From Cyanidioschyzon merolae (taxonomy: Eukaryota): a stretch of 64,000 bases of DNA. Of this stretch, positions 8,464-54,300 are shown piece by piece; position 1 is the first letter of the stretch; each line of letters starts with the position of its first letter. Position numbers and translations under genes: made by a program. The DNA lies in the NCBI GenBank assembly GCA_000091205.1, contig AP006501.2; one strand, written 5' to 3'. The notes beneath the pieces are model-generated. The model was not told the origin of the DNA. It searched no databases and saw only the letters and a list, made by a program, of their open reading frames with translations.

Positions 8464-8561
8464 CCAGACTCGGCATCTCGAAGCGGTGGATCACTGCGGC
8501 CGACACTACGGCATTCTCCCGAGACGCTTCCATTGCGGTATCGAGTACGCTGATGAAGCGG

Positions 8562-21816: not shown

Positions 21817-22740
21817 GGTGACGACTGGAGCGATCATTCGCTGCCGTCGCTGCTGCAGCTGATTTTTTACCTCTGACGAGGGGTTTCTATTGTATTTGGA
21901 ATCGCGTATTGCGGGATGGATATTACGATTTATGTAAGTGTTCATCAGGATGCTGAACTTCAAGTTCCATGACAGATACTTCCTTGCGGATGTACTGGTC
22001 GTTTCGGACGTTCTATCATGAGTCTAGTGCCTGCAGTACGCATACGCGTTAGCGCCGAGACCGCTGGAGCGGATATTTCATAGAGCCCGAACGGCTTTGC
22101 CATACGACTGGGGCGGGGGGTGTTGGCCCAAGGCATGATTCACTGGACATCGGGGTCGGAGCGTAGAATCATTCTGGGAGCGTGCAAGCTGTGCAGACGC
22201 ACTGCCTGTGGCAGCAGCGCGAAGCGATATACAAGGAGTACACTGCGACCAGGGCGATGCCCAGACGCTGGCTAACTGCTCGAAATCCCAGAATAAGCGG
22301 CGTTTCTGACGAGTTGCCCAGGTCTCAATAAAGCTCCTGCAACTGGGGGCCTGAAGCACAAGCCTGGCAGGCTCGTGCGACTCGCGGGACCTTACGTCCA
22401 GAAGGTAAACTCTCGACGATACGGAAACCTTTGCCCCCTTTTATCGTTTGTCGTAGAGGGGCAAAGAAAATGTTATCTCGCTACTAGTTTGTAACTAGTC
22501 TCTGTCCTTTTGGGTATATCATGCGCTCGATACGCGCACCTCCATATCTGGCAGTCACAAGACCTGACGTGTATCGCGCCGATGAAGGGAAACGCGATCC
22601 TGATCATGAGCGTGTAGCTCCAACGTACAGGACGCATTTGCGTTGAGGTCATGCGAAAGTATAGTATTTCATCCCAGATGAGTTTCGACCCTCAATGGAG
22701 TGTATTCAAGTGATTTTTCGCGGTTTATAGTAGTAGCGTT

Positions 22741-23140
22741 CAAAGAGCATTCTTTTCCAAAAACAAAAAATCCAAGGGACAGGTATCGACCTGGATGTTG
22801 GGAATCCTTAAGGGCCATCATCGTCGAATTCGACGAAGAATAACCGAAGAAGAAATCCTCTTTTCGTCGACTATCGAGCGAACATGAGCGAACGATGCGG
22901 ACGAAGAAGACCGAGAATGGATGTAGGCGAGAAAGTGTGTGCCCGACGAGACGATGACGAGACTGTAGTGGCACAGAGGGCGCGGGTTCTGGGAATCCTT
23001 GGAAAATTGCGTTCAGCCAGAGGCAATAAACGTATGGTGCTCGTGAACCGAGACTTTAACGCCGTCATCAATATCAGACGATGGGCGGTGCTGAAGACGA
23101 GACACGAGGAGCTTACGCGATCTAGCTTTGTGGAGTAGCC
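22741..23140 (+). pseudogene. Degenerate TnpB/Fanzor-like (IS200/IS605 OrfB-type RuvC) remnant, copy 1
   Basis: The in-frame translation ends '...KRMVLVNRDFNAVINIRRWAVL', matching the TnpB/Fanzor/Cas12 RuvC-III signature (D/N)RDxNAAxNI(x)RR. About 35 codons upstream in the same frame is 'KIQGTGIDLDVGNP' (RuvC-I 'GIDLG'-like), followed by a stop, which suggests an internally deleted relic. It is homologous to a second copy at ~42430-42970. Confidence 0.4.
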
Positions 23141-23204
23141 TCTCATGGGCGATGTGTACAGGGAGAAGCTGAAACCGATAGCAGGTCGCCTGTGTAGATA
23201 GGCT

Positions 23205-23257
23205 GGGAGGCGTCTGCACGTGGGTGTCAGTTTACGATCTCGAGGCGACGCCTCCAG
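23205..23257. other. 9-bp-stem inverted repeat (hairpin) ~70 bp downstream of the TnpB-like C-terminus
   Basis: 'ggaggcgtc' (23207-23215) pairs with 'gacgcctcc' (23247-23255); the 31-nt loop contains a cacgtg palindrome. Confidence 0.5.
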
Positions 23258-24119
23258 TGGTGCGGAAAGGCCGTTCTGTCTGCGCTAATGCGAGACGCGT
23301 GGTGGTTACCTGGGCCCTGCTTTTCCCTTATAGGCTATTACGTGAGCCCTTGGGCACCTTCAGCACAGAAACGTTTCCAGTCTGCAACGTGGCGGGATAA
23401 GCGAGTCGAGCTCGGAGCGCTCCGTGTACAATCACGCTGTCTCCTTTCGCAAGTTACGATGCGTACCTGTTTCGCGGCTGGATTTTTGGCACCAAAAGCG
23501 CTGTAGGTACCGGGTTCAGGTACAGTTCCATCTCGCCAGATGCTGTTGGTGTCGAAGGATCGGCTTCAGGAGGAGGTAAGCGTCCGGCATTGCGTACCAA
23601 GAGGTCTGCGACGAGGCGTTCATCGCGCAGTTCGTCGCATCAGCAGGCGGGCACTGCTTGTAATCGACTGCCTGAGCGCTTCATTGAGACGATTCATAAA
23701 AGCCATCGTCGCCTTCAGATATCACTCTGAGAACTGTTTGGACGCTGCAGAACGATTCTCGGGATGCGCGAAACATGCCCAGAGTCGGCACCTGGCATGG
23801 GGTAGGGTCCTGGTCTGTTGTGGTGTAGGATCCTTAAATCTAACCAGGTTTCTGGCGATGCGCATCCGCTTCTGATGACCACGAAAGAGGCCTCGTTCGC
23901 TTCACTAGCGCATGTGTGTGTTCGGCAAGTCCCAGTCAAAATGCCCAACAGGTATAGAGGCTTGCTCATTCCAAAGGAACAGCGGTTATCGAGTCTACAG
24001 TGGGCGCTCGCGCCACCGCGGGCTCATTCTCACACGCTCACCGCAGAGGTTCGTTTCCTAACGAGCAACTCGCGCGTCTGCAGGCGCATTCTCCAACGAG
24101 ATGCCGACCCTGAAAACGT

Positions 24120-28924: not shown

Positions 28925-30079
28925 CTATCGCCCGCGCCCGAGTTCCTGCGGTGACACGCGAAGCGTGATCCAGGCGGGAAGCCCCCACTGCGGATCCGAG
29001 ACTGCCATCGCTTCCACAATTCGCTCATTTGCCTGAAGTGGATGACTCTCGGGCCAGGTCTGGAGCGTCGTCACGCTCGCGTAGCCCTCTCGGATGGCGA
29101 CCAGGTCGGAGTTCACGAAGCCGTACAGCGGCTCTGGGCGCCCTTCTGCGCCAATGATGACCATTTCGGCAGAGTCTGGTTTCTGTCCAGCACCACTTCG
29201 AAAGACATCACGATAAAAAATCGCTCCTAAATGCGTTGTACGCCATCGTCCCCAATGCCAACGGGCAGGGAAGTTCACATTCAGTACCAAGTCGCCATAA
29301 CAGAACGCACTCCACACCAGATCCAAAGCATCCTCTGATGCAGCATCTTCGTCTGCTGCGACGGATCTGTTTACCTCTGTGGCAGGAGCCAGTGCTTTGC
29401 CACAGACATCACAGTGCCGCCGAGGCGTGCACCGCACACTGCTTGCGGTACCGGATGCCGTAGAGGTCTGCAGGCCAGGTCTCGGTCCATGTTCCGAGCG
29501 CCCGTGCAGGTGCAAACTCCTACACGGATCGAGACGTCCAGCGTTGGGTGGCGTTAACGGTAATCGTTCCACGAGCAGGGATACCAGAAACGCAGCGCCT
29601 TGAACGCACGCCTCCTGCGAGTCGCGTTGCAACGGTTCGCCTGCGAGACTGAAGGCTACCGCTGGGAGACCATAGAATCCGGCTTGTCGTGCACCGGAGA
29701 ATGTGCCGCTATGCAAGATATCTTGAGCGAGATTCGCGCCCAAGTTCGGCCCAGAGACGACTACGCGTGCGCATTTACCGAGGCGGGCGAGCAGTCCGTT
29801 CGGCTCGATAGCCGTGATCACACAGTCAGCCGGCGAGCCTGCCAGCGAGTACACACCTGTCTTGAGATCCGCTCGGTGCACCAGCTCCATAGGCGTCGCA
29901 AGTGTCAGTCGGTGGCTGCACGCTGATTGGTTTGTTTTGGGTGCGATCACTACCACGTCGAGTGCGTACTGTTCCTCCAGCGCCGCGGCCAAGCGCAGCA
30001 GCAGCACGGACTCAACACCGTCATCGTTCGTTAAGAGAACACAGGGTTTCAATTCAGTTGTTGTCGTGGGGTGCTGCAT
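28925..30079 (-). CDS. surE: SurE-family 5'/3'-nucleotidase (survival protein SurE homologue) with C-terminal extension
   Basis: 'VLLTNDDGVESVLLLRLAAALEEQYALDVVVIAPKTNQSACSHRLTLATPMEL...YSLAGSPADCVITAIEPNGLL...VVSGPNLGANLAQDILHSGTFSGARQAGFYGLPAVAFSL' matches the SurE N-terminal catalytic motifs (NDDG, GTPxDCV, SGxNxGxN..SGT). The start is set at ATG 30077-30079 ('MQHPTTTTELKPCVLL'). The upstream part of the 520-aa ORF looks non-coding. Confidence 0.8.
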   Translation of the reverse strand: MQHPTTTTELKPCVLLTNDDGVESVLLLRLAAALEEQYALDVVVIAPKTNQSACSHRLTLATPMELVHRADLKTGVYSLAGSPADCVITAIEPNGLLARLGKCARVVVSGPNLGANLAQDILHSGTFSGARQAGFYGLPAVAFSLAGEPLQRDSQEACVQGAAFLVSLLVERLPLTPPNAGRLDPCRSLHLHGRSEHGPRPGLQTSTASGTASSVRCTPRRHCDVCGKALAPATEVNRSVAADEDAASEDALDLVWSAFCYGDLVLNVNFPARWHWGRWRTTHLGAIFYRDVFRSGAGQKPDSAEMVIIGAEGRPEPLYGFVNSDLVAIREGYASVTTLQTWPESHPLQANERIVEAMAVSDPQWGLPAWITLRVSPQELGRGR

Positions 30080-30489
30080 TTTCCAAAGCGCACCCCGCTT
30101 TGTACACGGGCCGCCAGGCAGACACTTGAGAAGCACTCGGCTGGTACCTTGGTCGCGTTGCGTGCACCAGTGCCTAAGACGCTGGGCTCGAGTGCGGAAA
30201 CGCCAGGGAGTGGACCTATTTTTCCAAGTTGCTTGCAGCGCAACGTACATCAAGTCATCCAGCACTACAAGTCGTTTGAATACCACCTGGATAACCTGTT
30301 CTATGCACTCGAATAGACAGCAGCATACAGTCGCGACACCTCGACGAATTTGCGTGCTGGGGCGCTCTCTGTGGAGCTGGCGATAATGTTCCTTGAAATG
30401 AATGCCTCCGCATGGCGGTGCTTCAACGAGCGTTTTCCCGGAAAGGCGGCGGCGGCGGCACGGTTGCGGACTTCTGGGAATACTCATGT

Positions 30490-31640
30490 GCGGTTGACAT
30501 GGACTATCGAACGTCTCGCTCTGTTCCTGCTTTTCGGGGGCTTCCGAAGTTGTTTTAGATGCACATCATCGATTGAGGACCTGCAGCAAAGAGTGCTGAC
30601 AGGTTCATACGTAGTTCAAAGACGCTCAGCGGGTCTTTTCGGAGTGGCTGTTTCGATGCGGTGCAGCTGGGCGGATTCGCTCCGTCTCGGGGATCGAGAT
30701 GATTCGCGACGCTCGCGAACCAGGAATCGTGAAATCACGGATAGCATGATCCAGTTCGTACGGCCAAGGCTCTACGTTTCACTTTTCCTCAGGTCTAGCA
30801 CGCTTCGAGATTAAGATCTTGATGTTTCATGGCAAAGATTTGGCGCAGGTTTTCGCGCTGCTGGATGCATAAGGAGAAATGCTCGACATCTTCCATGGAT
30901 GACTTGTTCGCGAGTGCGTACCAAAAGTTGGCTGTATTTGTCGCATTCAATCATGGATTATTTTCGAAATATGAACCCTCAGTTTGTGGCCGTTGGCGAA
31001 ACGGATTCCACGGTAGCACGATATCTCTCACAGGATCTGCCACCAGACGCTCCCATCTATCGTGCTTTTCATAGCTAGGTATCTTGGACTGGGGTTTGAG
31101 GTATCGCATCGACCTCATTCAATGGAGAATGCGTCGTCGCTTTGCACGAAGGAGGCCTGAACGGATCGAAACTTTTCGACTTGTTCTCCAGGCGGGATTT
31201 TCATTCCGATGCTTGTTTCATGACGGACGACATCGCTTGCCGCAGATTCTCCTATCGAATGGAAGAGCGTGCGCCTGCTTGTGCATCTGCCAGAGCAGTC
31301 GTCAATGGGATCGCCCAGGTAATGCCAGTGCTCGTCTGGTGCGGTACTGGGCGCGGAAACGAATTAGGGTATCGGCAGGAGCGCTCTGTAACCGTCCAGG
31401 GCATCTGGTGAGCTATGGAGTGCGCCTCGACGCAATACGGGGCGGTCCACAGGGTAGCAGGTGTGATGTACGGATCGAAACGCCTGACAACCGCCATGCA
31501 TGACCGTTGGGAAAGGAGCACTCGGGCCATAAACAGAGAGAATGACAATGACGAGCGAGGCGTAGACTGCAACCACCGCCTGTGCATGACGTGCGTAGAC
31601 GACAACCCGAAGCAGTGCCATCGAGACCCAAACGCTGACA
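30490..31640. repeat. Dispersed repeat family R1, copy A (~1.1 kb, degenerate)
   Basis: It shares ordered homology islands with 48395-49450: 'ctcgctctgttcctgcYtttc', 'ttagatgYRca', 'gatgattcgcRacgc', the ~95-bp block 'cttgttctcYag.c.gga.att.ca..c.g.tgcttgtttcat....aca.catc.cttgc..aatc.c.t.atc.aatgga.gag', 'ggcatctggYgagc.atg.g', and 'ccgcctRtgcatgacRtgcgtWgacRacaRcccgRaagc'. Spacing between islands is conserved (~1.0-1.06 kb). Confidence 0.7.
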
Positions 31641-33062
31641 TTCACATTACAAGGGTGCTGACAACGGAGCTGCCGGGAAACGAGACACCGGGCATAAATG
31701 GAACCGCAAGTCAGAGAGAGGAATACGAAGCAATCGCTTAAAGAAGCCCGTGAACACTGACGATAATCACCCTGAGAACAGACACAAACTTTACTGCCAA
31801 CGACCGCGTTGGACGACTTGCTTCCTTCTTGACTGATATTCATGCACCATCCAAATGATCCTACACCCGAAGGAGGAAATCGTGTTGGCAATATCTGAAA
31901 TCCCTGTTTTGCTGGAACGATTCGAAACCTGTAGGAAATCGGGCCGCGAACACTGCCTGTCCGCACTTGTTTTTCTTTTTTCGTATGACGCAGCGTCGCG
32001 CATCTTGTCGCGGGTCACCGAATACGCGATCGCGATCAGCATCAAAACGAGCATCTATGATACTGCACCGGATTTTCAAATAACACGGCTCACATTGCAG
32101 TCTTCGCTTGGGCATAATGGTTCCCTGGAACGACCATCCGCGTGCCGAGCGTACCATGGGTGCCCAGAGCGGCGCTTAGAATGCTGGTTCGTATGCTGCA
32201 CCAAGACGAAACGACTTTGGCGTACTCTTGAGGTCCTCGGCTCGAGGGCGAACCCCCGGGTACCTCGTCGTCAGGCAACGGAGCCATGACCACTCGATTT
32301 GCGACGCGGTCGTAGCTGCTCTGACACGCTGACGCATCGAACGGAGCGTATGGTAGCGATCCCAGTGCCAATGGAACCGAAGCTGCTCGAGTGCCGCGCG
32401 ACTACGCGAGCTTTCATGGTGGACCACGGGCTGCTGGTGCGCGCTGTTGTTTTCGGGCCCGAAGAGAATTCATTGATTGGTGCATTGCGTTCCTTTTTAA
32501 CAACGAGTCCGTTCCTCTATATTTCCAGCGAGAATTGGCGCTGCGAGATGGTTTCTTTTGAACAGCTCTCTTGAATCAGGCCGAGCTCGGTTGGCCCAAT
32601 CGCTCCCCGGAAAATGAAGGACGCTTCGATGCGGCCCCCGGTTCTGGTGCTGCGGTGAAATCGTCTGCGGCTGCAGAACCGGCCGTAGACACCATTGTGA
32701 AGCCCAGTAACCAGCGCTGGCGTCGTTCAAAACTCAATGGACATAAAGATACAGGGTCGTGTCACCGGTCTGATGGTAGTGCTTTCCAAAATGCGTCGCG
32801 AGGTCGAGACTCACCTGTAGCAACTCCTTGGCATCACGAGAAGCATGGATCTCGCGGAGCGTCTGGCCTCGGGTGACGGCTGTAACGGACGCACATCCAT
32901 CGCAACTGGTGCAGATGGATCCAGCGGACGCGTATCCTTGGCCTGAGGCCATCGGCGCGCGCCTCGCACTGTTGCCGAGTCATCCTCGGCATCGGTATGC
33001 ATGTCCACTGACGTCCGGGTCTTGAGGGCGAACCTGTGCGGCAGTACGCGCAGCACAACCGC

Positions 33063-33584: not shown

Positions 33585-34409
33585 GATACGCTATACGTGC
33601 ACAAGTCAAATGAATTCGATCGTCAAGACCAATATCGTGTACGCAATGGATCCGAAACAATGCACCACGAAAGGCGCTCTCGATACATGGCACGCTCAGG
33701 CGCCCAATTTGGTACCACGCGATCCGAGCACGCGCGGAGGCGTCCCCCACGGATCGGCGTCCTGCATTTGTCGAGACGCCACGAAACGAATGGGCGCACT
33801 CGTTGCAGGACAATTTTGTGATCGTGGACACGGGCGAGGCGTGCGTCGCGGATCGCCTGGGACCCTCAGTCGAATGCGTGCGTGTGGTGTGTGGGTTCAG
33901 GTTGTGATCGTCGACACGGGCGATTTTTGGAGCGAGAATTTATACGCACCAGGGATCCCTGATTGCGCGATAGAACGTCAGCGATCGGGAACGCGTCCGT
34001 CGATCCGCCAGCCCCCGAGTTCCAGTGTCCCTAGTAGACCGCGCGGGGTTTCTGATCATTTCGTTGATTCCTCTGTGCGCCGAGTCTGCGATGAGTGCCC
34101 GTGATGGCAGGTGTAGCGTCGGTGCGGACGCTGCACGGAGATGCAGTCGTTTTTTGCCATGCCCGTTAGGGCATCGTCTTGAGGTGTCGTGCACTCGAAA
34201 AGGGAGTCGGGTCTCTCTCCTTCGAACTGTTATCGAAGCGTGTGCGTGTGCAGACCTGATTTCGCGGGACAAGACGTGGGAGACAACTCGTTCGTTCACG
34301 TAAATGCATGGCGGAAACGAGTTACGCCTCTGCAGTCGTGTGTGGAATGAGTTGACGGCACGTGATGCGGGCCCATACGGCGCATTCGACCTGTGTGAAG
34401 CTACACGGT

Positions 34410-34875
34410 TCGCTGGACTTGCGTTCTGATGCGTTTCGCTGGACTCCGCACCTAAAAGGCAGAATATGAGTTTGGTGGCCACCAGCGAGCGTTGCGACTC
34501 GGTTGGAGACCCGCGAGCGGCCAGGGCTACACCAGGCGTGAGCGGTCACCCGTCATCCTCGAAAGGAACATCCAGAAGCTGCAGTCCCTCGAAGAAGCAG
34601 CTGCCTTCCCTATGTTAACACAGGCACTGTAAGCGTGCCAGCGTTTCAGTGTTCCTGTCCCTACAGTAGGACCAGTGTGATTTCCCGTGTGCATGCAGCG
34701 TTCCGATACGGCATGAAGGCGGTGCTAGCCAGAACGCACCGACGCGCATGCTGGCGAGCCAGTGGCTAGCTCGAGCATGCTCCGGGGATTCCAGCACCTC
34801 CCACAAGCACTTGCGGGTCCATGCTAGGCCCTAGTCCCGGTACAGAGTCCAACTAGCGCTGAAGACTCGAATTTT
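34410..34875. repeat. Dispersed repeat family R2, copy a (~465 bp), upstream of the actin-like gene
   Basis: ~70-75% identical over its length to 39470-39940. Example: 'ggcactgtaagcgtgccagcgtttcagtgttcctgtccctacagtaggaccagtgtgatttcccgtgtgcatgc' versus 'gggcactgtaagcctaactatgtcagcgtgtcggggatctcgtttccacagcagggacagtgtgattcccagagtg'. Another shared block runs from '..ctcgagca(tg/ag)(c/t)cc(gg)gga(a)ttccagc(a/g)cctccca(c/cc)a(g)(c/t)acttgc'. Confidence 0.8.
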
Positions 34876-37799: not shown

Positions 37800-39104
37800 C
37801 TAGATGAAGATATACAGCAAAAACTCAAGGTAGAATACGTTCCATATTCCCTTGTAGTACGTTCGCAACGCTTCGAGGTTCTCTGGTCCCAGGCGCATCA
37901 AGCGCCCATGAACCTGCGTTAAAAAGTACCAGCTCAATGCTAAATGTCCGAAACCGAAAACCCAGACGCGAAAGTGAAACCGAGCCTCCGGCATTAAGGA
38001 TATAGCTGCAACGCCTACGAGCATGGAAGAGAGCGTTGCTGACGCCATACGCGCCACCTTGGCGACGCCCAGCCTACTCGCAAACGTCGGCACCTGATGC
38101 AGTCGGTCACCGTGCACGTCCGGTAGGTCTTTGGTGACCGCGATGACCCCCGCAAACACCGACATGATCATAATGAACAGACGCAGCGCTGGTGTCCAGG
38201 AAAGATTCAGACGGAGCGCCTCTTTGGTGGCGACGTAGACTCCGATGTTCAACAAAAGACCACGGACACAGGCAATGGTGAGCGCAGCCAACAACGGCAC
38301 GTTACGCCATCGAAAGGGAGGTACGCTGTACAGCGCGCCTATCGTCGTACCGACTAGATAAAGACCTAGAATCGTGCGAGAGAAATGGCGGTAAACGATC
38401 CACACGCCCAGCGCGATGGATGCGATACAGAGCATCCATGCTTGCTTGGTCGTCATCATCCCAGCCGCCAGCGGTAAAAAAGGTTTATTGACGCGGTCCA
38501 CGTCACGGTCATAGATTTGATTGATGCCAACAATAAACGCGTTGCCGAGCACGAGAGCAAAGATTCCCCAGAGAGCCTTGGGCACCAGCGTCCAGTCCAG
38601 ACTCACTAGGATACCCGTAAGCGTTCCGAGAAACTCGGACCCCAGCCTCCCTGCCGGAACGAGACTTCCAGCTGATGATTTCGACCGTGCCAACAGCTGT
38701 TCCCTAGAGTCTATAATAGCGCGAATGCAGCCGGTTAACGCAGCGAGAAAGGTCCCTCGCACGGTGTGCGGTCGAGTGAACGCGTACAACGCTGCGAACC
38801 GTCGTTCAAACGAAAGCCACAGCTGCGCAGATCCGTTTTTATCCCCTACTTGGTCAATGTGTCCCTCTCGTGCTACACTAAGACCGGCACTGGCACCGGT
38901 TCCGGCACTCGCGTTGCCAGACTCGGACGCGGGCGCACTTGCGTAGAGCCGACGCAGTACGTCTCCGCTCCGTTTTGGTGTAGTGCGACACGCGAACCTC
39001 ACTTGGTCGCCACAGAAACCTGCCCGTCGATGCAACTTAAGACCAACATGCTTCAGACCCGCTCGCTCGACCTGGAGGCAACGTCCGCTCACGGCAAGGA
39101 ACAT
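37800..39104 (-). CDS. Homogentisate prenyltransferase (UbiA superfamily; phytyl/solanesyl-transferase-type, tocopherol/plastoquinone pathway) with N-terminal transit-peptide-like extension
   Basis: First Asp-rich motif 'GNAFIVGINQIYDRDVDRVNKPFLPLAAG' (NQxxDxxxDxxNKP) and second motif 'KDLPDVHGD' are typical of homogentisate prenyltransferases; ~8 predicted TM helices; ATG at 39102-39104. Confidence 0.78.
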   Translation of the reverse strand: MFLAVSGRCLQVERAGLKHVGLKLHRRAGFCGDQVRFACRTTPKRSGDVLRRLYASAPASESGNASAGTGASAGLSVAREGHIDQVGDKNGSAQLWLSFERRFAALYAFTRPHTVRGTFLAALTGCIRAIIDSREQLLARSKSSAGSLVPAGRLGSEFLGTLTGILVSLDWTLVPKALWGIFALVLGNAFIVGINQIYDRDVDRVNKPFLPLAAGMMTTKQAWMLCIASIALGVWIVYRHFSRTILGLYLVGTTIGALYSVPPFRWRNVPLLAALTIACVRGLLLNIGVYVATKEALRLNLSWTPALRLFIMIMSVFAGVIAVTKDLPDVHGDRLHQVPTFASRLGVAKVARMASATLSSMLVGVAAISLMPEARFHFRVWVFGFGHLALSWYFLTQVHGRLMRLGPENLEALRTYYKGIWNVFYLEFLLYIFI

Positions 39105-39469
39105 GAGCTTGACAAGCTCGTGTTCCCAGCGTCCCAGGGTATGCTGGCTGCGGGATCACGGTGAGCGCAGCGCGCCGCGCAGCGTCGGTGCGGGCGCTGC
39201 ATGTAGACAGAACGGCTTTTCTAGACTGCAGAGGGCGTTGGCTCGAGGGGTGCTTCACCCGACGTAGAGTCGGAATTCATCATCATGATACGATCAGAAA
39301 GTCTGCGGATGCAGGCTTGTCTTCGCTGCACGGCACGCTGGAGAAACTTGGTTGTTAGGATGAATTCTGGGAGCCGCCTCTCTCCTTCGTGCTCCTGCAA
39401 GGAATGCGTTGTTGTTGGTTGGCAATGCGGGTTTGTGGTTGACACCCACCCACAGTGGGTAGGCGCAGA

Positions 39470-39940
39470 AAGCGCACTGTGCCCGTGTACGCATCCGCTT
39501 CGCTGGACCTGCTGCCTAGAAGGTAGCATGTGAGTTTGTTCGCCACTCATGAGCGCTGAGACTCGGTTAGCGGACCATCAGTTGCCAGTGCTACACTCAA
39601 AGTGATTGTCCGGCCTTCGCCTATCACGGTGATGCCCAGCTGCTGGTGTCCTTCAAGCAGCTCGCTGCGCTCCTGCTTCCAGCGCGGGCACTGTAAGCCT
39701 AACTATGTCAGCGTGTCGGGGATCTCGTTTCCACAGCAGGGACAGTGTGATTCCCAGAGTGATTCCAGTGTTCCTATGCGGCTTAGAGCCGGTGCTGCTA
39801 GTCAGAAGCCACCAACGCGGATTTTCGCGAGCCACTGAGTACCTCGAGCAAGTCCCGGGAATTCCAGCGCCTCCCACCAGTACTTGCATGTGTATGCGAG
39901 GTTGTAGTTCCGGTATAGAGTCAAGCCAGCGTCTCGACGC
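39470..39940. repeat. Dispersed repeat family R2, copy b (~470 bp), direct orientation relative to copy a
   Basis: See copy a. Also 'cgcttcgctggacctgctgcctagaaggtagcatgtgagtttgttcgccactcatgagcgctgagactcggttagcggacc' versus 34431 'cgtttcgctggactccgcacctaaaaggcagaatatgagtttggtggccaccagcgagcgttgcgactcggttggagaccc'. Confidence 0.8.
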
Positions 39941-40552
39941 TTGCGCTTATCCGCGTCTGCTGTAGACCACGGATGCGATTTCTGGACACAAAATTATGGC
40001 TTGGAGGCAAGTGCTCTAGCTTTGGACATGGCTATGTACGCACAGACGCCGCCCCTTGTCATGAATTGCAGGATTCTTTGTGTTCCGGGTAAGCGCGATC
40101 CTCACCATAACGTACCGGTCACTCCACTCCCGGGTTCAGCGGTATCTGCAATGACGCGGATACCGGGACAGCACGCTGCACAACAATGCGACGCATCGCT
40201 GTTGGTATCTGTCGACAGCCAGTGCTGCGCATGCACTACTTGTATGAGCGCTCGCAAAATGAAAGCCACCCCCTGCGTCAGCCGGATACGGCCACGGGAT
40301 GTACTGTTTAGGAAAAGAGGTCGTTCGTATCCGGTTATGGTTCTCCATCCGATCTGGGTCGCGATCGCAGCTTCCAGAATTCCGCGCCCTACAAAGCTAT
40401 GATGTCCTGGAATCGCTGGAATGAATTTCGTCAATTGGCTCCACAGCACAAAACCAATCGTTTTTTTCAGCATCCCGCAGCACGATCGAACCATTCGAAG
40501 ATACCGTACAGATACACCTGTCTGGTGCCGAACGTGTCCGAGACGTTACGCC

Positions 40553-41284
40553 TCAGACCAGTGCGTAGAGTACTGTGAGGTTTTCGAGTGCGGCCCTCAT
40601 GCCTGGCGGGATCGACTCATGATGCGAGACGTCAGAATACGTCCATACCGAACTCAGCACTGACAGCGTGATCAGCAGCGCGACCCAGAAGCGCCAATCA
40701 CGAGAAACCTCTCTCCAGGTAGGTGTTCTCGCTCTAAACTGCGACCATAGTTGGCGCACTCGGGCAGAGCTGCGTGTCCAGACGGTTGGCGCCGGCCGTT
40801 CCCGGGGCAGCTGGCTCCAGTCGATTTTTCCCTCACTCACGAACGCCTTCCATTCTTCGTTCCAGTCGATCAAGCTTTTTGGTACTTGATGTTGTGGATT
40901 GCGCTGTGGTATGCTTCCGCCGGTATTGCCGGTTTTATCGGCAGGCGCACCGCCTGCGTTCGAGTTGTCCTCGGACTCGTGCCGCGCTCTATCCGGCTGT
41001 CCAGCCAGGCACGTGAGCAGTCGTCTTCGTTCTTGCACACCGTGACAGGCGACTCTGCGGGGCAACGCAAAGCGTGCTCCAGACGTTGAGCGAGTAGCGC
41101 TGCGGTTGCGGGCCCGCTGCGCCAGCGCAGGCGCTGGTGGTGAAGGGCGCGCGACCAGGAACCGCACGCTCGAGCTCGCTCCCGTCGTAAACGCAACCGA
41201 GCGCTCCGGGTTCCGCGAACACTCCTGCCCAAACGTTACCTCTTGACCCTGAGTACTCATCCGCCGAAACGTGTGCAACTTCAT
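40553..41284 (-). CDS. Hypothetical protein with C-terminal transmembrane segment
   Basis: 243-aa ORF with ATG at 41282-41284. A hydrophobic stretch 'FWVALLITLSVLSSVW' lies near the C-terminus. No family recognised. Confidence 0.3.
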   Translation of the reverse strand: MKLHTFRRMSTQGQEVTFGQECSRNPERSVAFTTGASSSVRFLVARPSPPAPALAQRARNRSATRSTSGARFALPRRVACHGVQERRRLLTCLAGQPDRARHESEDNSNAGGAPADKTGNTGGSIPQRNPQHQVPKSLIDWNEEWKAFVSEGKIDWSQLPRERPAPTVWTRSSARVRQLWSQFRARTPTWREVSRDWRFWVALLITLSVLSSVWTYSDVSHHESIPPGMRAALENLTVLYALV

Positions 41285-42429
41285 CGATAAGCAGTTGCTG
41301 CGTGCGATCGCTGCAACGCTACACCAACGTACAGAGGTGAACGTCTATCATAGAATCTGACGCTACACACCAGTGCAGAGACTGATGCGTCCCAGGCGTT
41401 CGCGCGTTCGATCTCGAAAACGATGACTGTTATGTGCTGTTATATCCGTAGATGTCCAGCCAAAATTTTTTCAACTCGAGACTGCTCCACCCATTCTGTG
41501 GTGGATGGCAGGCGATCGACTCCACAATGCAATGTATCGTACAGATCATAGACGAAATCTCTCTAGGATGTATTCTGTGCGAAACTGTGCAAGGAGGACT
41601 GTATTTCTTGTTCAGGTGAGTCATATCATAGTGCTTAGATGGTTGAGGATTACTGAAAGGCACATGTAGATGCGCTTTGCGCAAAAAATATTATGAAAGA
41701 CTGCTCATCGTCAATGATAGAAAACGAACCGTTGATCAGCATATGGAAAGTAAAACCAACGATCGTAGACACAGCAAGTGTCTCTGTTTCTCAACAGCTT
41801 GTTCACGTGGTACTCAAAACACTGGGGTACAGTCACAACAAAGTCCGCGTTCACGCACGACTCTCTTCCACAGAAATCGCAGCGACAGCGTTCCTGAAAC
41901 GTCGCGATCGCTATGATACAGAGAAACGTCGGTTATTTTTTTCAGTGTATGAGACTTGCTTCAGAGGATACGGTCGGAACGTCCATGGGTATTTGCAGAG
42001 AGGGAGCCCGTTGTGTCTATGACCGAACTCGAAGAGATACAGGTTATCATCTTCTATTCTAGCAGCAGTGGATCCATTTGGTGGCCTCAGTTTCGCTTGT
42101 AAAGAAGTCTCGTAGAACAGCAGCAATGCTGTCGACTCGTTAAAGACTTTTCCCCGGACCTCTGGCGACGTTCTTCTACTGTACAACGTAGAATTTCAGC
42201 ATTCACTTTGCGTTTGGGCTTTTCCGGATTCTATCGGGGTGCAGCTGCTTTTCACTCTTCCGTCCTCTCCGAGATTCAACGCTATAAAGAGGAGTGGTTT
42301 CTATGGTGAAACGCGTTGATCGGTCCATTGTACGAATCGCCGAGGCGTTCAGGACACGGTGACGCCAGGGCACATTTTGTCTGTCTGCCGCGAGTGCCTC
42401 TCCCGCTGCGAAATTCCTCACCCGAGTGC

Positions 42430-42970
42430 TTAAAGAGGTGCATTCATTTTCAAAAATAAAAATCCAAGAGAAGGCTATACACATGCAAACTGGGTATTCA
42501 GGAGTGCCATCATCACTGGATTTGACGAAGAAAACAGTAAACAAGGCCAATCCCAGAGGAACAGGAGAAGACCAAGAAGCACAAGCCGGAGGCCTGACGT
42601 CAATGGCCGCAAGAAGGACCACAGTACAACGAGATCGTAGTGAAAACCTGTCTTTTCGGGTATTTCGAGGATCCGTGCAAACAAAAGTTGCGAAATGGCC
42701 ATCAGAAACCGTGTCGAGTCGTGCGCCATGAGTTTTATGGACGCCTCTTCAGGCCGAATGCATTTGGTTAAGGTCATGCAACGCGACGTGACGGGCATCA
42801 AAATGGGCGAGGTTCCAGTGGAGTCTCTCGACCAGATCTTCATTCGCCACTTGATGTTTCGCACAGGGCAAACGTCGAGGAGAAATGAACGAGTGCATGC
42901 CATTCACGAAAATGACGCCGAATATCGCTTCGACGGTGCTCGACACAAGCTTGACTCGTGTATTTAAGAA
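42430..42970 (+). pseudogene. Degenerate TnpB/Fanzor-like remnant, copy 2 (frameshifted), inside an AT-richer island
   Basis: Nucleotide homology to copy 1: 'cattcattttcaaaaataaaaatccaag' versus 'cattcttttccaaaaacaaaaaatccaag', and 'gccatcatcactggatttgacgaagaaaacagtaaacaagg' versus 'gccatcatcgtcgaattcgacgaagaataaccgaagaag'. At the peptide level 'GRMHLVKVMQRDVTGIKMG' parallels copy 1 'NKRMVLVNRDFNAVINIRR'. The reading frame is split across ORFs 42426..42731 and 42695..42967. Confidence 0.35.
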
Positions 42971-44728
42971 TACGGGGCGATCAAGTACCTCATGAACCCG
43001 AAGAACCATTTGACTATGACCCTTGAACGCATCATCATACGCTTCATGTTTGCACTCTACCCGGGCCACTCTCGCATCGGGACATGGGCCATCATCATCG
43101 GCATTACGAACGATCGCCAGCATGAACGGGAGATCGAATTCATCGACAAGAAGACACCGCGCAGGAGAAAGAATGAGGACTCTGTGATCTGTGCCGCTAT
43201 TCAAGAGCACCGTGCGGTCTTGGGGCTGGTCAATCCAGCAGAATAGGTATCCGATATGAAAAAGAAAGATGTTATCCTCTCATCCTGCGTTATTTCGTGT
43301 TTCTGAGTCGAGAACTCGAATGCAAAGCCGAAATATAGCAGAGTGTGGGAAAAATAGTGACGGGGAAACGGAAGGCTGCGCTTCTGGGGAAACGCTTCAA
43401 CGTGGTTCCAATGTGCAACATCAAGTCACATATCGTGACTATCTACTCCAGAGTCCTGCACGGCATCATGAGGCAGCTCTACCCGGAGTTCAATCGACGG
43501 AAGATAGAGCTCACCGGTGAAAACCGGGAGACTCATTGGAAGAGTATCTTCGATTGCAAACGTCTGAAAACGAGCAAGAAAAAGGTATTCGCGGGCAGGA
43601 TCGAGACCGATGGGGTCTCCATACGTGTACACTACCAGCGGTTGAAGGCGGGTCGTCCTATTGTGTCCACGGCTTCGCCGTGGCGAACCATGAAGATGAG
43701 AAGGAGGTGGATCCTGCGACGCAGTGACCTATCCCTGGATAGGTCACTGCGTCACTATCAACCCGAAGCACAAACCGAACACGAATATCCATGCACACAG
43801 ACGTCGCCAACGTTGCATTCTAACAGCAAGCATCCGAAGCGCAACCTCTTCATCATCATCGTAACACCCCGCGGTGTCTCGATTCGACACAGACCAGGCG
43901 TCGTTTTCATACTGGCGGTTGAGCGCAGCGACAGAGGCTTTTATGTTGCGTGCGAGACGCACCGAGGCCCGCAGCACCCATCCCCAGGGCGTGTACTGCA
44001 AAGCGAACTGTAAACCGCGCTGCGAGGCATCCGATGCGAAGCACCCGAACACAGGCCCCCGGCACCTGAGCACCCTGGAATCCGCTCAAATATGTCCAGT
44101 TCGAATCGGTACCTCTGGGTGCGCTCGCACCGACACCATGTACCCGTTGGGCAGCAGGATCCCCGCAGACACTCGTTTACGACCAGTATCTACGATAAAC
44201 GCGCCATCGACGAAAAAAAGCAGTTTCAGAGATACAGTGTGTTCCGCTGTTGAACGTTGCAGCGACAAGCAGGATGCACAGTGCGGAGATAGCGCGGATG
44301 CCTCGTCGTCATCGTCGTCGTCGCCGTCGCCGTTACCTGCCCTATGCAGACAACAACAAGCACCGTACAACATCGAGACTCGCACACACCAGCGAGCGGT
44401 GTGTCTTCTGGTTTCACACACCCATACGCGCGCTGTGCTGCACGGTCATCGCCTTCGCGCCGTTCGCCAGGGACCCCAGACAAGCCGCGGTTGCTGCGGG
44501 AGCGCTCCCGTGTCCGCTGCAGTGGGTCAGCGTCCGCCAATCGTCCCGCAAGCATCCGCTTTTGGCGGTTTTTTCGATGCTCCCCTGCTGTCCGTTTAAG
44601 CAGGGGCCTCCAATGCATCATCCATTCCACCCAGTTACACTCTTTTCGTGAAAACGAGGTGTTCTTCATTATACCTGCATCCAGGGCACGTGCAACGGCC
44701 GCTCGACACCTTGTAGCTACGCAGATAC

Positions 44729-48142: not shown

Positions 48143-48394
48143 CGTCCGAGCTAGGCACAACTTGACGCGCACGGTACGGAACAGTGATTGCGTTCCAGGC
48201 TGCAATCAGATGAGGCTGCTCGTTTAGCCACACCTGGCGAAGAATTGGGTTGAGGTTGCTCTGCGGGATCTTTTAACGCTACTTTCAATCCGTGGGCTTC
48301 CTGTATCACGAAACATTACCGACCATCCGCGAAGCGCTGGTCGGCATCGTGTGTGCGAACGATGCGCGACACGCGTATGAGACGAAAATGGAAC

Positions 48395-49450
48395 ACTGAA
48401 TAGCTCGCTCTGTTCCTGCCTTTCAATTTTTTGGCTTTCTTAGATGTGCAGCAATAGGTGCTTATGGATGCATATCTAGTTTAAGGATGCTCGCTGCTCT
48501 ATTCGTAGTGGCGCCGTCCACTCGGTGGCGCTGGAATTCGTTACGTCACCGGAATCAAGATGATTCGCAACGCCTTTGAATGAGGGTTCGTAAAAGTACC
48601 GATATCTTTATACAATGCATACATATGAGACTCCGATACTCAACTTAACTCTCGAGTAGTGTGCTCAGATCGCGCATTCTGCGAGTTTTCGATCTATCTG
48701 TTTCAAGCAACTCGCGGGCGGGGGATTTCGTGCTGCTAGACGGAAGGGGAAATGTGCTCGAGGTTGTCCCTAGACAACATGTTGAAAAACTCCTTCTTAA
48801 GGTTCACTGAACTTGTCACATCAGAAAATCGATTTCATTCGAAAGAGAAAATGTCCTCCGGTCATAGGCCATGAGCGAGACGGCGTTCCATAGCAGCACT
48901 ACGTATATAACAGAATACGCTCGGAGAAGCCCACGGGTCTTCTGTTCTGTACGATAGGGGATGGTGGACTCGGACTTTAGCCACCACAACGATCGCTTGG
49001 AATGGAATGTGCGAAACTGCTATGCACGAGGGCGGCCTAGACGCATCCAAATTAGTCGTCTTGTTCTCTAGCCTGGATATTCCACCGGGTGCTTGTTTCA
49101 TCGAGAACAGCATCACTTGCTACAAATCCCTTATCAAATGGAACAGATTGCGCTTCATCATAGGGTACTAGACTGAATGCGGAAACCAAGCAGAGCATTC
49201 GCGGGTGCCTGCGGTGGTCTTCAAAGGCATCTGGCGAGCAATGAGGGACACGTTTCCGCGGCACGTTCGAGTTCTCGGAGGAGGACGAGGAGGAGGAGGA
49301 CGATGAGGAGGGCATGCGACGAAAACGCGGGAATATATGACAACACCCAGGTGTCATAGCTCTGAAGCGCGTCCCCGAGTTGTCCACAAAGGAGTTTGTA
49401 GATCGCAGCTTCCGCCTATGCATGACATGCGTTGACAACAGCCGGAAGCG
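48395..49450. repeat. Dispersed repeat family R1, copy B
   Basis: See copy A. The minus-strand ORF 49052..49438 starts 'MSTHVMHRRKLRST', paralleling 'SSTHVMHRRWLQST' in the copy-A minus-strand ORF 31252..31641. Confidence 0.7.
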
Positions 49451-50252
49451 ACTTTATCGAGAATTTCACACTGTCATCAGCATCTTGCGACGGATGACTA
49501 CAGAGCTGGGGGTAAACGAGCGAGGGTCGTACTGAAAACCGGAAATGAGCGTGAGGAGATGAAGCCAGTGCGGGGAAAAAATCGCAAATGCTGATGCTGG
49601 TATCAGTGAGAAGAGACCCAGACTTTTACATACGCGCCCGTTTCAACAAAGCGGACCTTTTCATCTCTATACTGACACAGGTTTAGATCCGCGCATATGA
49701 GGCCGCGGAGCAGGTTGCTGACTTTGTTGCTGACTCGTCCACGCTACGGCTTGTGGAGGCAGCATAAACGATCCGCTCTGCGAAACGATCCGCGACGCCA
49801 CCTGTGCGTCTCAGGCACCAAGTAGCAGGTTCACAACACGGTGCCGAGCCCGTGGGGCATCTGCGGCTTGCCACTCGGCCAATGTATGACGCCAACTGTA
49901 CGTTCAACGAGTGATGCCAAACGTATCCGACATCGGATGTCTGCGCACCGGTAGTTCTCTTTGATAGGGCAGCGCAACACGGGTCGCACCAGCGAGCGGA
50001 CGTTCATCCGGTGTACATATGCAAGTGCGCGAATGTGGAGGTTGCAGTTAGAGGCACGTTCATTTCACAAGCCACGGAGCTATGCGCACAGATGGTGTAA
50101 TTCTCCTGGTACAAAAGATACGGACCGGAACTGTCCGTAACATATCCTTCAGATGCATGCAATTACACGACAAACGAAGCGCCGTCATCCGTCGTGATTC
50201 ATCTTCATTCATGCACAAGGTCTTCGCGCTCTTTTCGCGCTTTCGTAGGCGC

Positions 50253-51362
50253 TCACGCGGTAGGTTCACCATTTGGCCCCGGGCCCTGAGTTCCCCCGTC
50301 TGACCAAGGACGAATTGCTTCCTGAGTGTTGTCTTCGTTGGTTCCTGGCTCATTCGCTTCTTCCTCTTGCCACAAGTATACGGATCCTTCCAGCGCAGGC
50401 ACCGTTTGCAGAGCCATCTGTGCACGAAGGTACGCCATGAACCATTCAACACCGCTGCGGAGACGCTCCAGATGAAGAGCCGGCTGGCGCCCGCGTAGAG
50501 GCTGGAGCGTCCCTAGTCCCAGGATCGACTCGACGAGCGGGCGCAAGCGCAGGCGCGTGTGTTGGATGTTATCCAACGCGTGCTGCTCAACCCACCCGTC
50601 CAAGTTTAAATAGTACATCGAATATCCCTCAAGCTGGCGGATTCTCGTTTCCTCCTCCCAGGAGGTGCTCTCCTGCCACCCGGGGGCGTCCTGCTCGGGT
50701 CGGAGCCGGAAAGCGCCCAAACCCAGAAGAGGGACCCAGCGCCGTAAACGCCCACGCATGATCCATCGAATGTAAACGGTTCCCTCGCGCTCGTCATGGA
50801 AGAGTGATGTAATTTCAATGGAGCGCTCCGAAAATAGAAGCTTCCCGTGTAAACGAAGCACCCAGAAAACGGCTTTGTATGCACCGAGTCCTTGCAGGAC
50901 GTTTCCTGAAGTGCGGTCCACCAGCGTGATTGTCGGCGAGTATACTTCAAAGTTTGGATCTCGTTCAAAAAGGTGGGGATAGTCCGAACGTAAGGTCTCT
51001 ATTACAGTGCCAGCGTTCGCTGCGTAGTCTGGGGAGCGCTTGTTCCGCTGGTCCCTCTGGGTGTCACGATCCTCTGACAGCCCCGGAAACGGGAACCACT
51101 TGCTGCACACAAGACTCCGTGTCCCCTTCGGTTGCCGCTTTCCATTTACCGAAAAACGGGGTCTGTTTGTCGGTCGCTGACGGCTGCCTTGGTCGTTCAC
51201 CGAGTGTCCCAGCCAGTCGGAGACGCCCGCGCAGGTGACGTCGCGACGCACCCATCGAACGCTCGGCGACAGAGAAGTTTTTCCTGTGGCTGCTCCTCGT
51301 TCCAGGCCCCACCACGCAGGATATGCGCAAAAATTCAGACCTCTGTAGTCCAAAGGATTCAT
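50253..51362 (-). CDS. DUF2358-domain protein (family typical of cyanobacteria/plastid-bearing eukaryotes), with N-terminal extension
   Basis: 'IETLRSDYPHLFERDPNFEVYSPTITLVDRTSGNVLQGLGAYKAVFWVLRLHGKLLFSERSIEITSLFHDEREGTVYIRWIMRGRLR...GYSMYYLNLDGWVEQHALDNI' fits the DUF2358 pattern (DYP.LF...P...iY...i.F.DP......G...Y.......R......f....f.i..i.......i..RW...G..R.....G.S...ln..G.i..H.D.WD). The ORF-track start at 51383 is GTG; the first ATG is at 51360-51362. Confidence 0.55.
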   Translation of the reverse strand: MNPLDYRGLNFCAYPAWWGLERGAATGKTSLSPSVRWVRRDVTCAGVSDWLGHSVNDQGSRQRPTNRPRFSVNGKRQPKGTRSLVCSKWFPFPGLSEDRDTQRDQRNKRSPDYAANAGTVIETLRSDYPHLFERDPNFEVYSPTITLVDRTSGNVLQGLGAYKAVFWVLRLHGKLLFSERSIEITSLFHDEREGTVYIRWIMRGRLRRWVPLLGLGAFRLRPEQDAPGWQESTSWEEETRIRQLEGYSMYYLNLDGWVEQHALDNIQHTRLRLRPLVESILGLGTLQPLRGRQPALHLERLRSGVEWFMAYLRAQMALQTVPALEGSVYLWQEEEANEPGTNEDNTQEAIRPWSDGGTQGPGPNGEPTA

Positions 51363-54300
51363 ATTGGTGTTCGAAACGAGCACACAGCGCAGTCACTCTT
51401 TTCCGGGTGGCACTCGTGCGCAATCCCAACAGTAGTCTAATTGCGCGAGTGCTCTCCTGCTGCGAAACACGTAGAGGTTCACAAAGAGCGTGCAGGAATC
51501 AGGTGAATCTGGCAGCAAAGTGTCAAATTATTCCATGGTTATACATTAAAGTCCAGAACGTTTTGCGGCATGGTGTAGAGGCGGCGCAGTGGCATCTATC
51601 TGCGTAACGGCACCTAATTGAATATCTAGGGCTCAAACTATATTAAATGGACAGTATGGGTACACATGTGGCGAGACGCTCGTAGACGGCATCCGAGCAA
51701 TGGAACGAGCTCAGGACGCTGACTCCTCGCTAGACACGAAAAATTTAGGTCGCTTTCCCCTGTGATCAATACCAGCCTATGCTGGTCTTTTCTGCGGCTG
51801 CATCCTTTGCTACGCTCTTACATCCGGTTTTCAATACCCTGGGTGGTACGTTCCCTTCAGACAGTTGTGAGCAGATGAAGGATGATCACGGCAGTGTCGT
51901 AGTCCCGAAATCGCTGCTCTTCGCTGTTGTCGTCGAATGTCATGTACACGTGCAAGTTGCGATCTGCACTGTGCTTGCCATATTCGTCTCCTTTGGACAC
52001 AGCCTCGGTGCGCTGTTCGATGCGGTGACACGCGATTTTGGCCAAATGGTCTAATACGTTCGCAACGCAAACGTCCTCCTTTGAATGCCACTCTGTTTCA
52101 CGTGCACGCTTGCTGCATCGCTTGGTACATGCCTCTGGTGGATACAGGAGGCCGCTCTCGAAACCGTTCTCGGTTTCCACGCCCGGCGCCGCACGCTACC
52201 GTCACGAGCTTCTTCTGCGCAATCCAATCGAAGGGTACGCTGGCTGCCGCACACCCAAGCGCACGCTGTCCCGTTCGATAACGCACGATCCGCTTGCCTC
52301 AACGGCCCTGATGACGCTCTAGATAGCGCTAAACCATTGAGAACAGACTGGATTTTGTAGGATTATCTGTATTCTTTTGTCTGCGGTTTTCCTAATAGAT
52401 GAAAATCAATGGAACGTCCACTGTCCGTGATGAAACATGCACCAGTGCGATCATCCAGGATGGAGAGCAAGTCGACACACTTCGATTCGTCTACGCTCCA
52501 TTCTTGGAAAGCAGTGACGTACTCTCCACTGGAAGCGATTGATGCGAAGGCTGATATCCGAGTCCAAGACGCTTTCCGCTGCAAACAGGCAGCACGAGCG
52601 CCTTAGAGACCGAATCCCACGAAAGGCGGCATCCTGTTTTGGATTGCTATTTTGGCGATGGACACAGCGAAAGGTTTTTTTATGTTTCAGTCGGAATCGA
52701 TGATTTGACGTGACCGATTCAGTGAACTTTCCGCGTGCGCTGTTGCACAAGTCTTCGAGAGACAAAGCAGCGTTTCTTGTTTTGTCGTCAGTCCAGCGAT
52801 GCGAAATGCTGCGCCCGCGAATTTCCATGAAACAGAAAGATCGATAACTTGAAGAATGCGTGCAGTGAGCATGCTACTCGTAAAAAGAGGAGAAGCGTGG
52901 AGGCTTCTACGAACACATTTGATAATGCTATCGATTATTTTATGAATAGTCTCTCGGGGCCGCGCAGTTCCGCTGGAGGTGAGAGAAGACAACTCATATT
53001 TCTCTACCTGTTCTACAGTGCAAATCTCCAAACGATGCCAATTTCATCACAGACAATATAGCGTTCCACAACTCCTATATGGAAAGGGATTGCGTGTGCA
53101 TGCGCGGGCACCGGACGGAAGAACTGCCGCAGGAATCGCCTAGAAGAAGCCTGTGAACGTCGGGTCCGGCCCCGGGTGCGGCAATGGTGCAGGGCATCAA
53201 GAGTAGGATCCTATATCTGTCTAGGGCATATGTAGACGAACGAAGAGAGTGTACACATGCAACAGGCCAGTCTAAGTCGGAGGATAAGGTGTCATGGAAG
53301 CATGGGAATACCCGATTAGAGCCAATTGTCACCGCTATGAAGGGCGCACCCAGGCTGTATACAAAGAAGATGAAAATGGTAAGCAAAGCGTAGCTCGTAA
53401 CTTTTCTATCTTCATGAAATGCTTGCTAAGCAGCCGGACGCAGCGATCCCGGACTTGAACACAAGGCAATCAACGTGCTTCAACTGCTGGCATGGGCACT
53501 GGAGGGACTGAAGAAATCACCACGTTTGAAGCAGGATACAACGGCCAGGGAAAAGCAGTCGCATAGGCAGGCGTTGATGCCAGTGTGAGGGGATACAAGC
53601 TTTGGCGTACGGGCATCAGCCTGGAGACCCGCCCCATTCTATGCCACCACTGGTGCCGACAGCACATGCGTCACTGCGAAGCGCCCGATCATTTCCCTGT
53701 GAAGCAAATCGAAAGCATCTAACCAAGTAGACATGTTCCCGAAAGCATCAGAAGATCATATGTTGGATTCGCGAGTTCCATCGTCTGTGCATAGACGAAT
53801 GCAGCGACAGCGACATCGCCCAAAAGCCTCCTATCCAACGCTACCGGATATGAGGACTCGTACCATGCGCGGCAACAGCAGCACTGTCCTACAAACGGTT
53901 TCCCATGGTATGAACCAAATCCAACGAGACCCCTCCTGCACGTGTCCGTGAGAACAAGCTTGTCTCGCCAGGGAACCGTGGTCCGTACGAGGCATTCCTT
54001 GACAGAGGTCTGGGACGATTGCGTGCGTGCTGGTCCAAGTGCTGCCGACACCGCCGCTTTTCTGTGTCCATATTTGACATGGTTCGGGCGAGTGGGTCAC
54101 GGGTTGGAGTCGGCTGCGCTCCTCACAAAACGGCCTCAGACCACGTACTGGTTACACCGTGTGCAGACGTTCAGCTCCCGATGAACGCTGCAGGCAGGCC
54201 ACCAGCAGCGCTTTCTGGGGTGTGTAGCCCTGCTCGAGCGAAAACACGTCACCTCCCGGGAAGGCCGCTAATCTTTCGCGCAAGCACTCCGTACCTCAGC

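Follow-up and report, generated by a model that had tools for sequence, protein, structure and literature searches.

What is the degenerate dispersed repeat near the middle of this 64,000-nucleotide stretch of DNA (hereafter the window), and did it ever encode a protein? A first-pass annotation had placed one copy (A) at 30490-31640 and a second one (B) at 48395-49450, each of about 1.1 kb and linked by five collinear islands of homology, and had read traces of coding on the minus strand. The long ORFs of the window are intron-less eukaryotic housekeeping genes found on both strands (ca. 56% GC), among them those for listerin, an Spb4-type DEAD-box helicase, Rna14/Suf, condensin Cnd3, UbiA, and L22. 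The closest relatives are Cyanidiales red algae: the DUF2358 protein encoded at 50253-51383 is 71% identical to that of a further assembly, 64% to that of Cyanidiococcus yangmingshanensis, and 52% to that of Cyanidium caldarium. The host is therefore taken to be an uncultured alga resembling Cyanidioschyzon or Cyanidiococcus. Searches for tRNAs and against PHROGs gave no matches. Contigs from other samples (L012-L016) carry the same loci as the window at 99.3-99.6% identity, so that several strains are present in public metagenomes.

The five islands were found by direct reading at the expected positions of copies A and B, and alignment of the two copies put their significance far above chance, with 63.4% identity over 718 bp in blastn (E 2.6e-65), a second collinear block of 233 bp (63.5% identity, blastn), and an E value of 2e-62 when the window was searched against itself. 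The repeat is therefore real, but it is both longer and more numerous than first described, since the units extend over ca. 1.32-1.37 kb including their terminal inverted repeats (TIRs) and the window contains four of them (Table 1). Copies C and D were detected in the window with nhmmer, and five more full-length copies were located on other metagenome contigs of Cyanidiales-like character (one each on L009, L017, and L018 and two on L019, each with an nhmmer E value of ≤1e-146), which we reached via ORF fragments retrieved by protein searches. Their boundaries are identical to those of the window copies, and their gene contexts differ. A metagenome scan with one peptide pattern re-found only A, B, and C, in other samples. 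The copies are pairwise about 52-63% identical and show a star-like pattern, with every pair at 0.52-0.58 in the alignment that includes the copies from the other contigs. Copy C has an insertion of ~115 bp at the point where the two parts described below, transposase and Fanzor, join. RIP-like mutation was ruled out by a transition-to-transversion ratio of about 1:1 and a GC content only slightly lowered.

Table 1. Copies of the repeat in the window and their recognizable parts
Feature	Position	Strand	Evidence or remarks
Copy A, full length (~1.37 kb), best-preserved frame	30481..31850	+	nhmmer score 1313; termini from 8-copy alignment
Copy A, left TIR (decayed)	30481..30505	+	8-copy end alignment
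Copy A, IS630/Tc1-mariner-type transposase relic	30635..31249	+	tblastn with consensus part (residues 26-235), 46% identity, E 4e-46
Copy A, Fanzor1 C-terminal relic	31253..31741	+	tblastn with consensus Fanzor part, 53% identity, E 9e-41
Copy A, right TIR (decayed)	31820..31850	+	8-copy end alignment
Copy B, full length with frameshifts and ~50-bp deletion	48368..49685	+	blastn, nhmmer
Copy B, TIR	48368-48394	+	
Copy B, transposase relic	48439-49126	+	
Copy B, Fanzor relic	49157-49580	+	
Copy B, TIR	49657-49685	+	
Copy C, 5' end truncated where it adjoins D	51673..~53010	-	nhmmer
Copy C, transposase relic	52962-52399	-	
Copy C, Fanzor relic	52280-51786	-	
Copy C, right TIR	~51673-51706	-	
Copy D, 3' half only, head-to-head with C	~52996..53655	+	nhmmer E 2.4e-61, profile 734-1361
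Copy D, Fanzor relic	53093-53452	+	

The claim that the unit was encoded on the minus strand had to be abandoned, as the ancestral ORF lies on the plus strand (in copy A, the frame in which the window position mod 3 equals 2). The likeness between the minus-strand peptides of A and B is real, but it is a by-product of ca. 75% nucleotide identity and is similar in every frame; because any frame yields such likeness, it is no evidence of coding. The minus-strand peptide 'STHVMHRR' is the reverse-strand reading of a Fanzor zinc-ribbon segment, 'FRLCMTCV', and 'DAVLDETSTRWNIQ' arises when one reads in reverse the transposase block 'ACF(I/M)TD(N/D)IA', where the second catalytic Asp of DDE_3 is found. 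The plus-strand frame of copy A is interrupted by 6 stops over 436 codons, compared with ~19 expected by shuffling, and in clearly non-genic windows of 1.3 kb the best of the six frames has at least 10. The stops in copy A are private to that copy, and a consensus anchored on it has 2 stops in the same frame versus 7 to 20 in the others. This pattern is what one expects of a single ORF-bearing ancestor whose copies then decayed neutrally and independently. Matches to the Fanzor1 profile and proteins are confined to plus-strand frames of the copies, and the codon-usage score favors the true frame only weakly. In the consensus of eight copies, which includes copies from contigs outside the window and from which the threshold-passing Pfam matches of the repeat come, there are open stretches of 277 and 327 codons, and the canonical Fanzor motifs 'PVIVGYGTGRGNG', 'WEHLTTAMCHCC', 'FRLCMKC', and 'NRDLNAAINIL' are regained. 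The suspicion of an old, broken protein-coding element was thus well founded, as judged by the plus-strand ORF, the domains that it encodes, and its decay.

The 3' part of the ORF was the first to be identified. With only four copies, the top match of the consensus, a weak one, was PF07282 (the TnpB/Cas12f/Fanzor zinc ribbon), whereas with eight copies the match to PF07282 (Cas12f1-like_TNB) reached 33.9 bits (GA 26.3), and the NCBIfam TnpB family was matched over profile positions 329-388 of 389 (E 6e-4). The consensus also has, in 'HLTTAMCHCC...FRLCMKCVDNSRKQRNRDLNAAINIL', the arrangement [TS]-[TS]-x-x-C4 zinc finger-x(5,50)-RD that characterizes the C terminus of Fanzor1 and TnpB proteins (Bao & Jurka 2013, PMC3627910). 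Copy A itself retains 'GTGRGN', E-x-x-TT, the C4 zinc ribbon, and RuvC-III 'RDxNAxI', and its original stop codon is probably the one at 31739-31741. Direct Fanzor matches of the raw window copies were weak: a Fanzor1-family HMM matched copy A at 31283-31690 with E 3.5e-5, and the other E values were 4e-5 to 6e-4, among them 5e-5 for copy A against the intact protein P0017 (tblastn). A profile of frame-projected translations recovered an intact relative of 216 amino acids (P0005) at E 3e-21, and an exhaustive HMMER search with this protein retrieved 217 relatives, many of them 600-880 amino acids long and matching at their C terminus. When relatives were compared with Pfam, PF07282 was the sole match in 8 out of 10, above threshold in 3 of these 8. 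In hhalign, the window profile aligned with the last ~150 columns of 39 full-length relatives (600-880 amino acids; probability 99.4%, E 1.8e-21). The profile of these 39 matched in turn the solved Fanzor1 proteins PpFz1 (9cf0, 2e-22), SpuFz1 (8gkh, 5.5e-20), and GtFz1 (9cer, 5.6e-16) and, again in hhalign, the CMe-1 Fanzor1 of C. merolae (99.9%, E 1.8e-35). Nothing relevant was found when PDB sequences were searched with the window profile, with P0005, or with P0007 (a protein of 756 amino acids).

Judging from these alignments, the 3' part corresponds to the end of a Fanzor1 protein, namely its last ~170 residues. The C-terminal E-x-x-[TS][TS], the C4 zinc ribbon, and RuvC-III 'RDxNAAxNI' are common to SpuFz1, PpFz1, GtFz1, bacterial TnpB, and our repeat. 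In contrast to those proteins, however, the repeat has only this last portion; the RuvC-I Asp, due 125-275 residues upstream, and the N-terminal half with WED and REC are absent from the unit, which makes nuclease activity impossible. An upstream extension of the Fanzor alignment proposed by hhalign was spurious (zero confidence). Since a transposase fragment occupies what lies upstream of the Fanzor part, the unit contains a piece of a Fanzor1 gene and not a Fanzor1 gene.

In the four-copy consensus, two segments of that upstream region had been taken for RuvC-I ('FDLSVS') and RuvC-II ('HEGGL'), and with eight copies both proved to belong to the HTH and DDE_3 domains of the transposase. The consensus matched Pfam DDE_3 with 33.8 bits (GA 28.6), only over profile positions 3-92 of 146, and HTH_33 with 25.5 bits (GA 25), besides a weak match to HTH_32; the NCBIfam IS630 transposase was matched at positions 19-236 of 299 (E 1.7e-14). 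As nothing of the two transposase profiles beyond these stretches is present, the third catalytic residue has been deleted. In copy A, the relic consists of the HTH and the N-terminal ~60% of DDE_3 and ends just past the motif of the second Asp, 'FMTDDIA'. We found no intact transposase with the same inverted repeats, and a word-indexed protein search with the transposase part gave only short, decayed ORFs.

To compare the ends of the unit, the right end of every copy was reverse-complemented and aligned with the left ends. The left and right consensus, from 7-8 copies, have the same base at 18 of the 20 positions that could be determined (P ~4e-8), giving an inverted repeat of ~27 bp, TA(A)AC(C)C(G/A)TGTCAGAATAAAATGGAAC. 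These repeats are visible in the multi-copy consensus only, and a pattern search in the window found no end within three mismatches of the 20-nt core. At many ends, TA precedes the terminus, as Tc1/mariner elements lead one to expect; this may reflect a target-site duplication of TA, which in copies this decayed is inseparable from the repeat itself. Inside the left TIR of copy A lies the first ATG (30487-30485) of a SurE-domain ORF (520 amino acids, 28925-30487, minus strand), in which the Pfam SurE domain does not begin before residue 150. Either this gene really starts further downstream or the insertion of copy A reshaped its 5' end.

Two relatives keep the gene order Cnd3-Suf-DUF2358-L22-DEAD-UbiA-actin, which allowed the insertion sites to be compared. 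Their syntenic gaps measure 0.6-1.05 kb and 1.5-1.7 kb versus 2.1 and 2.9 kb here (the sites of B and of C plus D, respectively), that is, both are shorter by about the size of the element, and the repeat profile found no match in the syntenic intergenic regions of either relative. These data bear on a rival origin without transposition, in which local segmental duplication multiplied a host gene family and the copies are its decayed paralogues. Four copies within 23 kb of the window would suit such an origin, but their flanks are unrelated, the same sharp boundaries recur at different loci and contigs, the copies have inverted repeats as well as domains of transposase and Fanzor, and the syntenic sites of the relatives are empty. 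We therefore give it very little chance of being right. Of the two identities proposed in the first-pass annotation, the decayed gene-family member finds no support in view of the transposon domains, the TIRs, and the unrelated intergenic contexts, while the non-autonomous transposon is upheld by the transposase domains, the TIRs, and the unrelated insertion sites.

The way in which the copies have diverged indicates their present state. Mismatches between copies have no three-base periodicity, no excess of synonymous changes appeared in any of the six frames (either globally or in sliding windows), and lineage-specific changes are evenly spread over codon positions. Every copy has stops and frameshifts, and catalytic and zinc-binding residues have been lost at random. 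The copies are dead relics that have decayed neutrally. The null results of the coding tests had first suggested a non-coding origin, an idea we rejected because neutral decay after insertion predicts the same nulls. Another explanation is that of conserved non-coding modules under selection, such as promoter or UTR elements or a family of lncRNA genes. The copies do adjoin gene ends (copy A is located directly at the beginning of the SurE-domain ORF), and conservation along the unit is uneven (0.57-0.79 per 40 columns). However, the best-conserved blocks fall on protein motifs of the ancestral ORF, the fold of the 3' 286 nt of the consensus shows no structure signal relative to shuffles (z = 0.06), Rfam gave no match, and the unit is missing from the orthologous intergenic regions of the relatives. 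An origin of this kind is extremely improbable.

We conclude that the copies are very probably dead, non-autonomous Tc1/mariner-IS630 derivatives of a composite mariner plus Fanzor1 element, residing in a Cyanidiales nuclear genome. The ancestral unit, of ca. 1.37 kb, would have begun with a TIR of ~27 bp and a short 5' leader. Behind these, the first ~235 transposase codons (the HTH and DDE_3 as far as the second catalytic Asp) would have run without a gap into the final ~170 codons of Fanzor1, closed by a stop codon and followed by ~80 bp of 3' sequence and the second inverted repeat of ~27 bp. Its most likely origin is one internal deletion in a composite transposon of the form "mariner transposase + Fanzor1." In the transposase, this deletion would begin just past the second catalytic Asp, and in Fanzor1 it would end near residue 540-545, taking away the C terminus of the former and the N-terminal ~540 residues of the latter. 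Lacking the WED, REC, and RuvC-I of Fanzor1 as well as the last of the three catalytic residues of the transposase, the unit was unable to move by itself. It was probably mobilized in trans by a full-length transposase that recognized its inverted repeats, and its copies, once inserted in intergenic DNA, would have undergone neutral decay to ~55-60% pairwise identity.

One may ask if retention of the Fanzor tail was selected, either because the chimeric ORF was a functional fusion or because the Fanzor 3' end together with the right end served as a guide-RNA scaffold. In TnpB and Fanzor systems, the ORF and the guide RNA overlap at the 3' end of the former, which we counted in favor of the scaffold version. 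The transposase and Fanzor parts of copy A do share one frame, and two other derivatives (on contigs L010 and L019, see below) likewise keep the C-terminal 150-216 codons of Fanzor beside a transposase. On the other hand, the chance of an in-frame junction is 1 in 3, substitutions are uniform over codon positions, catalytic and zinc-binding residues were lost at random, and the folding and Rfam results given above are both negative, all of which makes selected retention distinctly improbable. Taking as a basis three independent deletion derivatives (the window repeat family, L010, and the CMe-1-type copy of L019), the scaffold version can be developed into units that are RNA-only hitch-hikers of full-length Fanzor1 and transposase, with tail and right end kept by selection; we consider this unlikely.

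Derivation from a composite of mariner and Fanzor1 places the repeat within a known class, since mariner elements that encode Fanzor1 and have TIRs of 24-33 bp and TA duplications have been described (Bao & Jurka 2013, PMC3627910). As in PUl-1, PUl-2, and PUl-4 of Pythium ultimum and in PGv-1, a Tc1/mariner transposase comes first and Fanzor1 second on the same strand. The TIRs, compared by description, are of similar length (24-33 bp in PUl/PGv and ~27 bp here). Those elements have reported TA duplications, and several termini of the window family have TA beside them. However, the PUl and PGv elements are 3.4-3.8 kb long and have complete genes, while the repeat is a deletion chimera of 1.37 kb, fully decayed, in a Cyanidiales host. 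Ends kept, a deleted middle, a transposase acting in trans, and amplification of one deletion variant are also features of the Ds derivatives of Ac and of MITE precursors. Nevertheless, the unit is no MITE, given its 1.32-1.37 kb and the remnants of two ORFs, compared with less than ~800 bp and no coding remnant in that class. What is new here is thus a decayed member of a known mariner plus Fanzor1 class, and no new mechanism is revealed.

The other obvious comparison is CMe-1A ("WSV486-like"), a Fanzor1-derived repeat of ~3.2 kb present in C. merolae in 150-253 copies, or ~5% of the genome (Nozaki 2007, PMC1955436; Bao & Jurka 2013, PMC3627910). Both families belong to the same algal order and are dispersed, intergenic, Fanzor1-derived repeats with truncated ORFs, apparently numerous in a genome that is otherwise poor in repeats. 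CMe-1A differs in having neither inverted repeats nor a transposase, with copies that match their consensus at ~80% identity, whereas the window family has TIRs and a transposase fragment. Furthermore, the Fanzor part of the window family is only 23% identical to CMe-1 (BLASTP E 0.002) and therefore represents a different Fanzor1 lineage. In addition to the CMe-1A family, the only one previously described, the Cyanidiales would thus harbor a second lineage of Fanzor1, this one accompanied by a mariner-type transposase.

Relics of Fanzor elements make up essentially all the dispersed repeats of the window. A CMe-1A-type Fanzor1 relic at 42529-43680 (plus strand) covers residues 18-404 of CMe-1 in three frames with 62-71% amino acid identity; it is truncated on its 3' side and is 73% identical in DNA to positions 9587-10636 of L009, a contig with a nearly full-length CMe-1-type relic (CMe-1 residues 69-734). 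Directly upstream of the window relic, and co-oriented with it, is a second relic of an IS630/mariner-type transposase (~41510-42400, plus strand), with three recognizable DDE regions, 'LFFSVYETCF', 'LLLYNVEFQH', and 'LPSSPRFNAI'. The same transposase relic (68% DNA identity) is found on L019 (9449-8136, minus strand), followed directly by CMe-1 residues 576-728. The class of transposon to which CMe-1A belongs was called unknown in 2013 (Bao & Jurka 2013, PMC3627910), and the position of a transposase relic directly upstream of a CMe-1-type Fanzor at two independent loci suggests that CMe-1A-type elements may also derive from mariner plus Fanzor1 composites.

Elsewhere in the window, 21874-22504 (plus strand) aligns with the initial 630 nt of the CMe-1A consensus, the TE-N2_CMe-like part (77% identity over 638 bp, E 3e-136), and downstream of this segment 22938-23225 matches CMe-1 residues 625-729, so that 21874-23290 (plus strand) reads as an internally deleted CMe-1A-like element. 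The DNA identity of the 21874-22504 segment to the C. merolae consensus is high, given how far the host proteins diverge from those of their nearest relatives. Two further repeat pairs have ~63-65% identity. One (34115-34858 and 39181-39931) lies where the CMe-1A 5' region matches at 63-66% (33939-34211 and 39176-39525), and the other (1837-2381 on the minus strand and 22664-23216) is the 3' end of a CMe-1-type Fanzor gene. The intergenic region between UbiA and DEAD (39104-44729) has 5.6 kb versus ~0.8 kb in two relatives, and the extra DNA consists of transposon relics and of ORFs without a Pfam match. Pfam searches with the other intergenic ORFs of the window gave nothing relevant.

A comparable deletion occurs in an AT-rich organism. 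Contig L010 (ENA ERZ27301260; 1114 bp, 33% GC) contains the C terminus of a mariner-like transposase, 'LFVPPYSPWFNPIE', and then an internally deleted Fanzor1 in which codons 1-23 run directly into the final 216 codons of P0007 (93% identity), with the breakpoint at residue ~540. It is an independent deletion derivative that kept the Fanzor tail.

These relics explain what fills the unusually long intergenic regions of an otherwise compact red-algal genome and show how much Fanzor-associated DNA is carried by the "simple" genomes of the Cyanidiales. The consensus can be used to mask a family now split by gene callers into many spurious small ORFs, and natural variants in which only the 3' end has been kept are useful for asking which part of the element is needed in cis. 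Apart from the dispersed repeats, the window has a tandem array of 81-bp units (8563-9256, ~96-97% identity) inside a long minus-strand ORF (8319-9239), which probably encodes a protein repeat of 27 residues.
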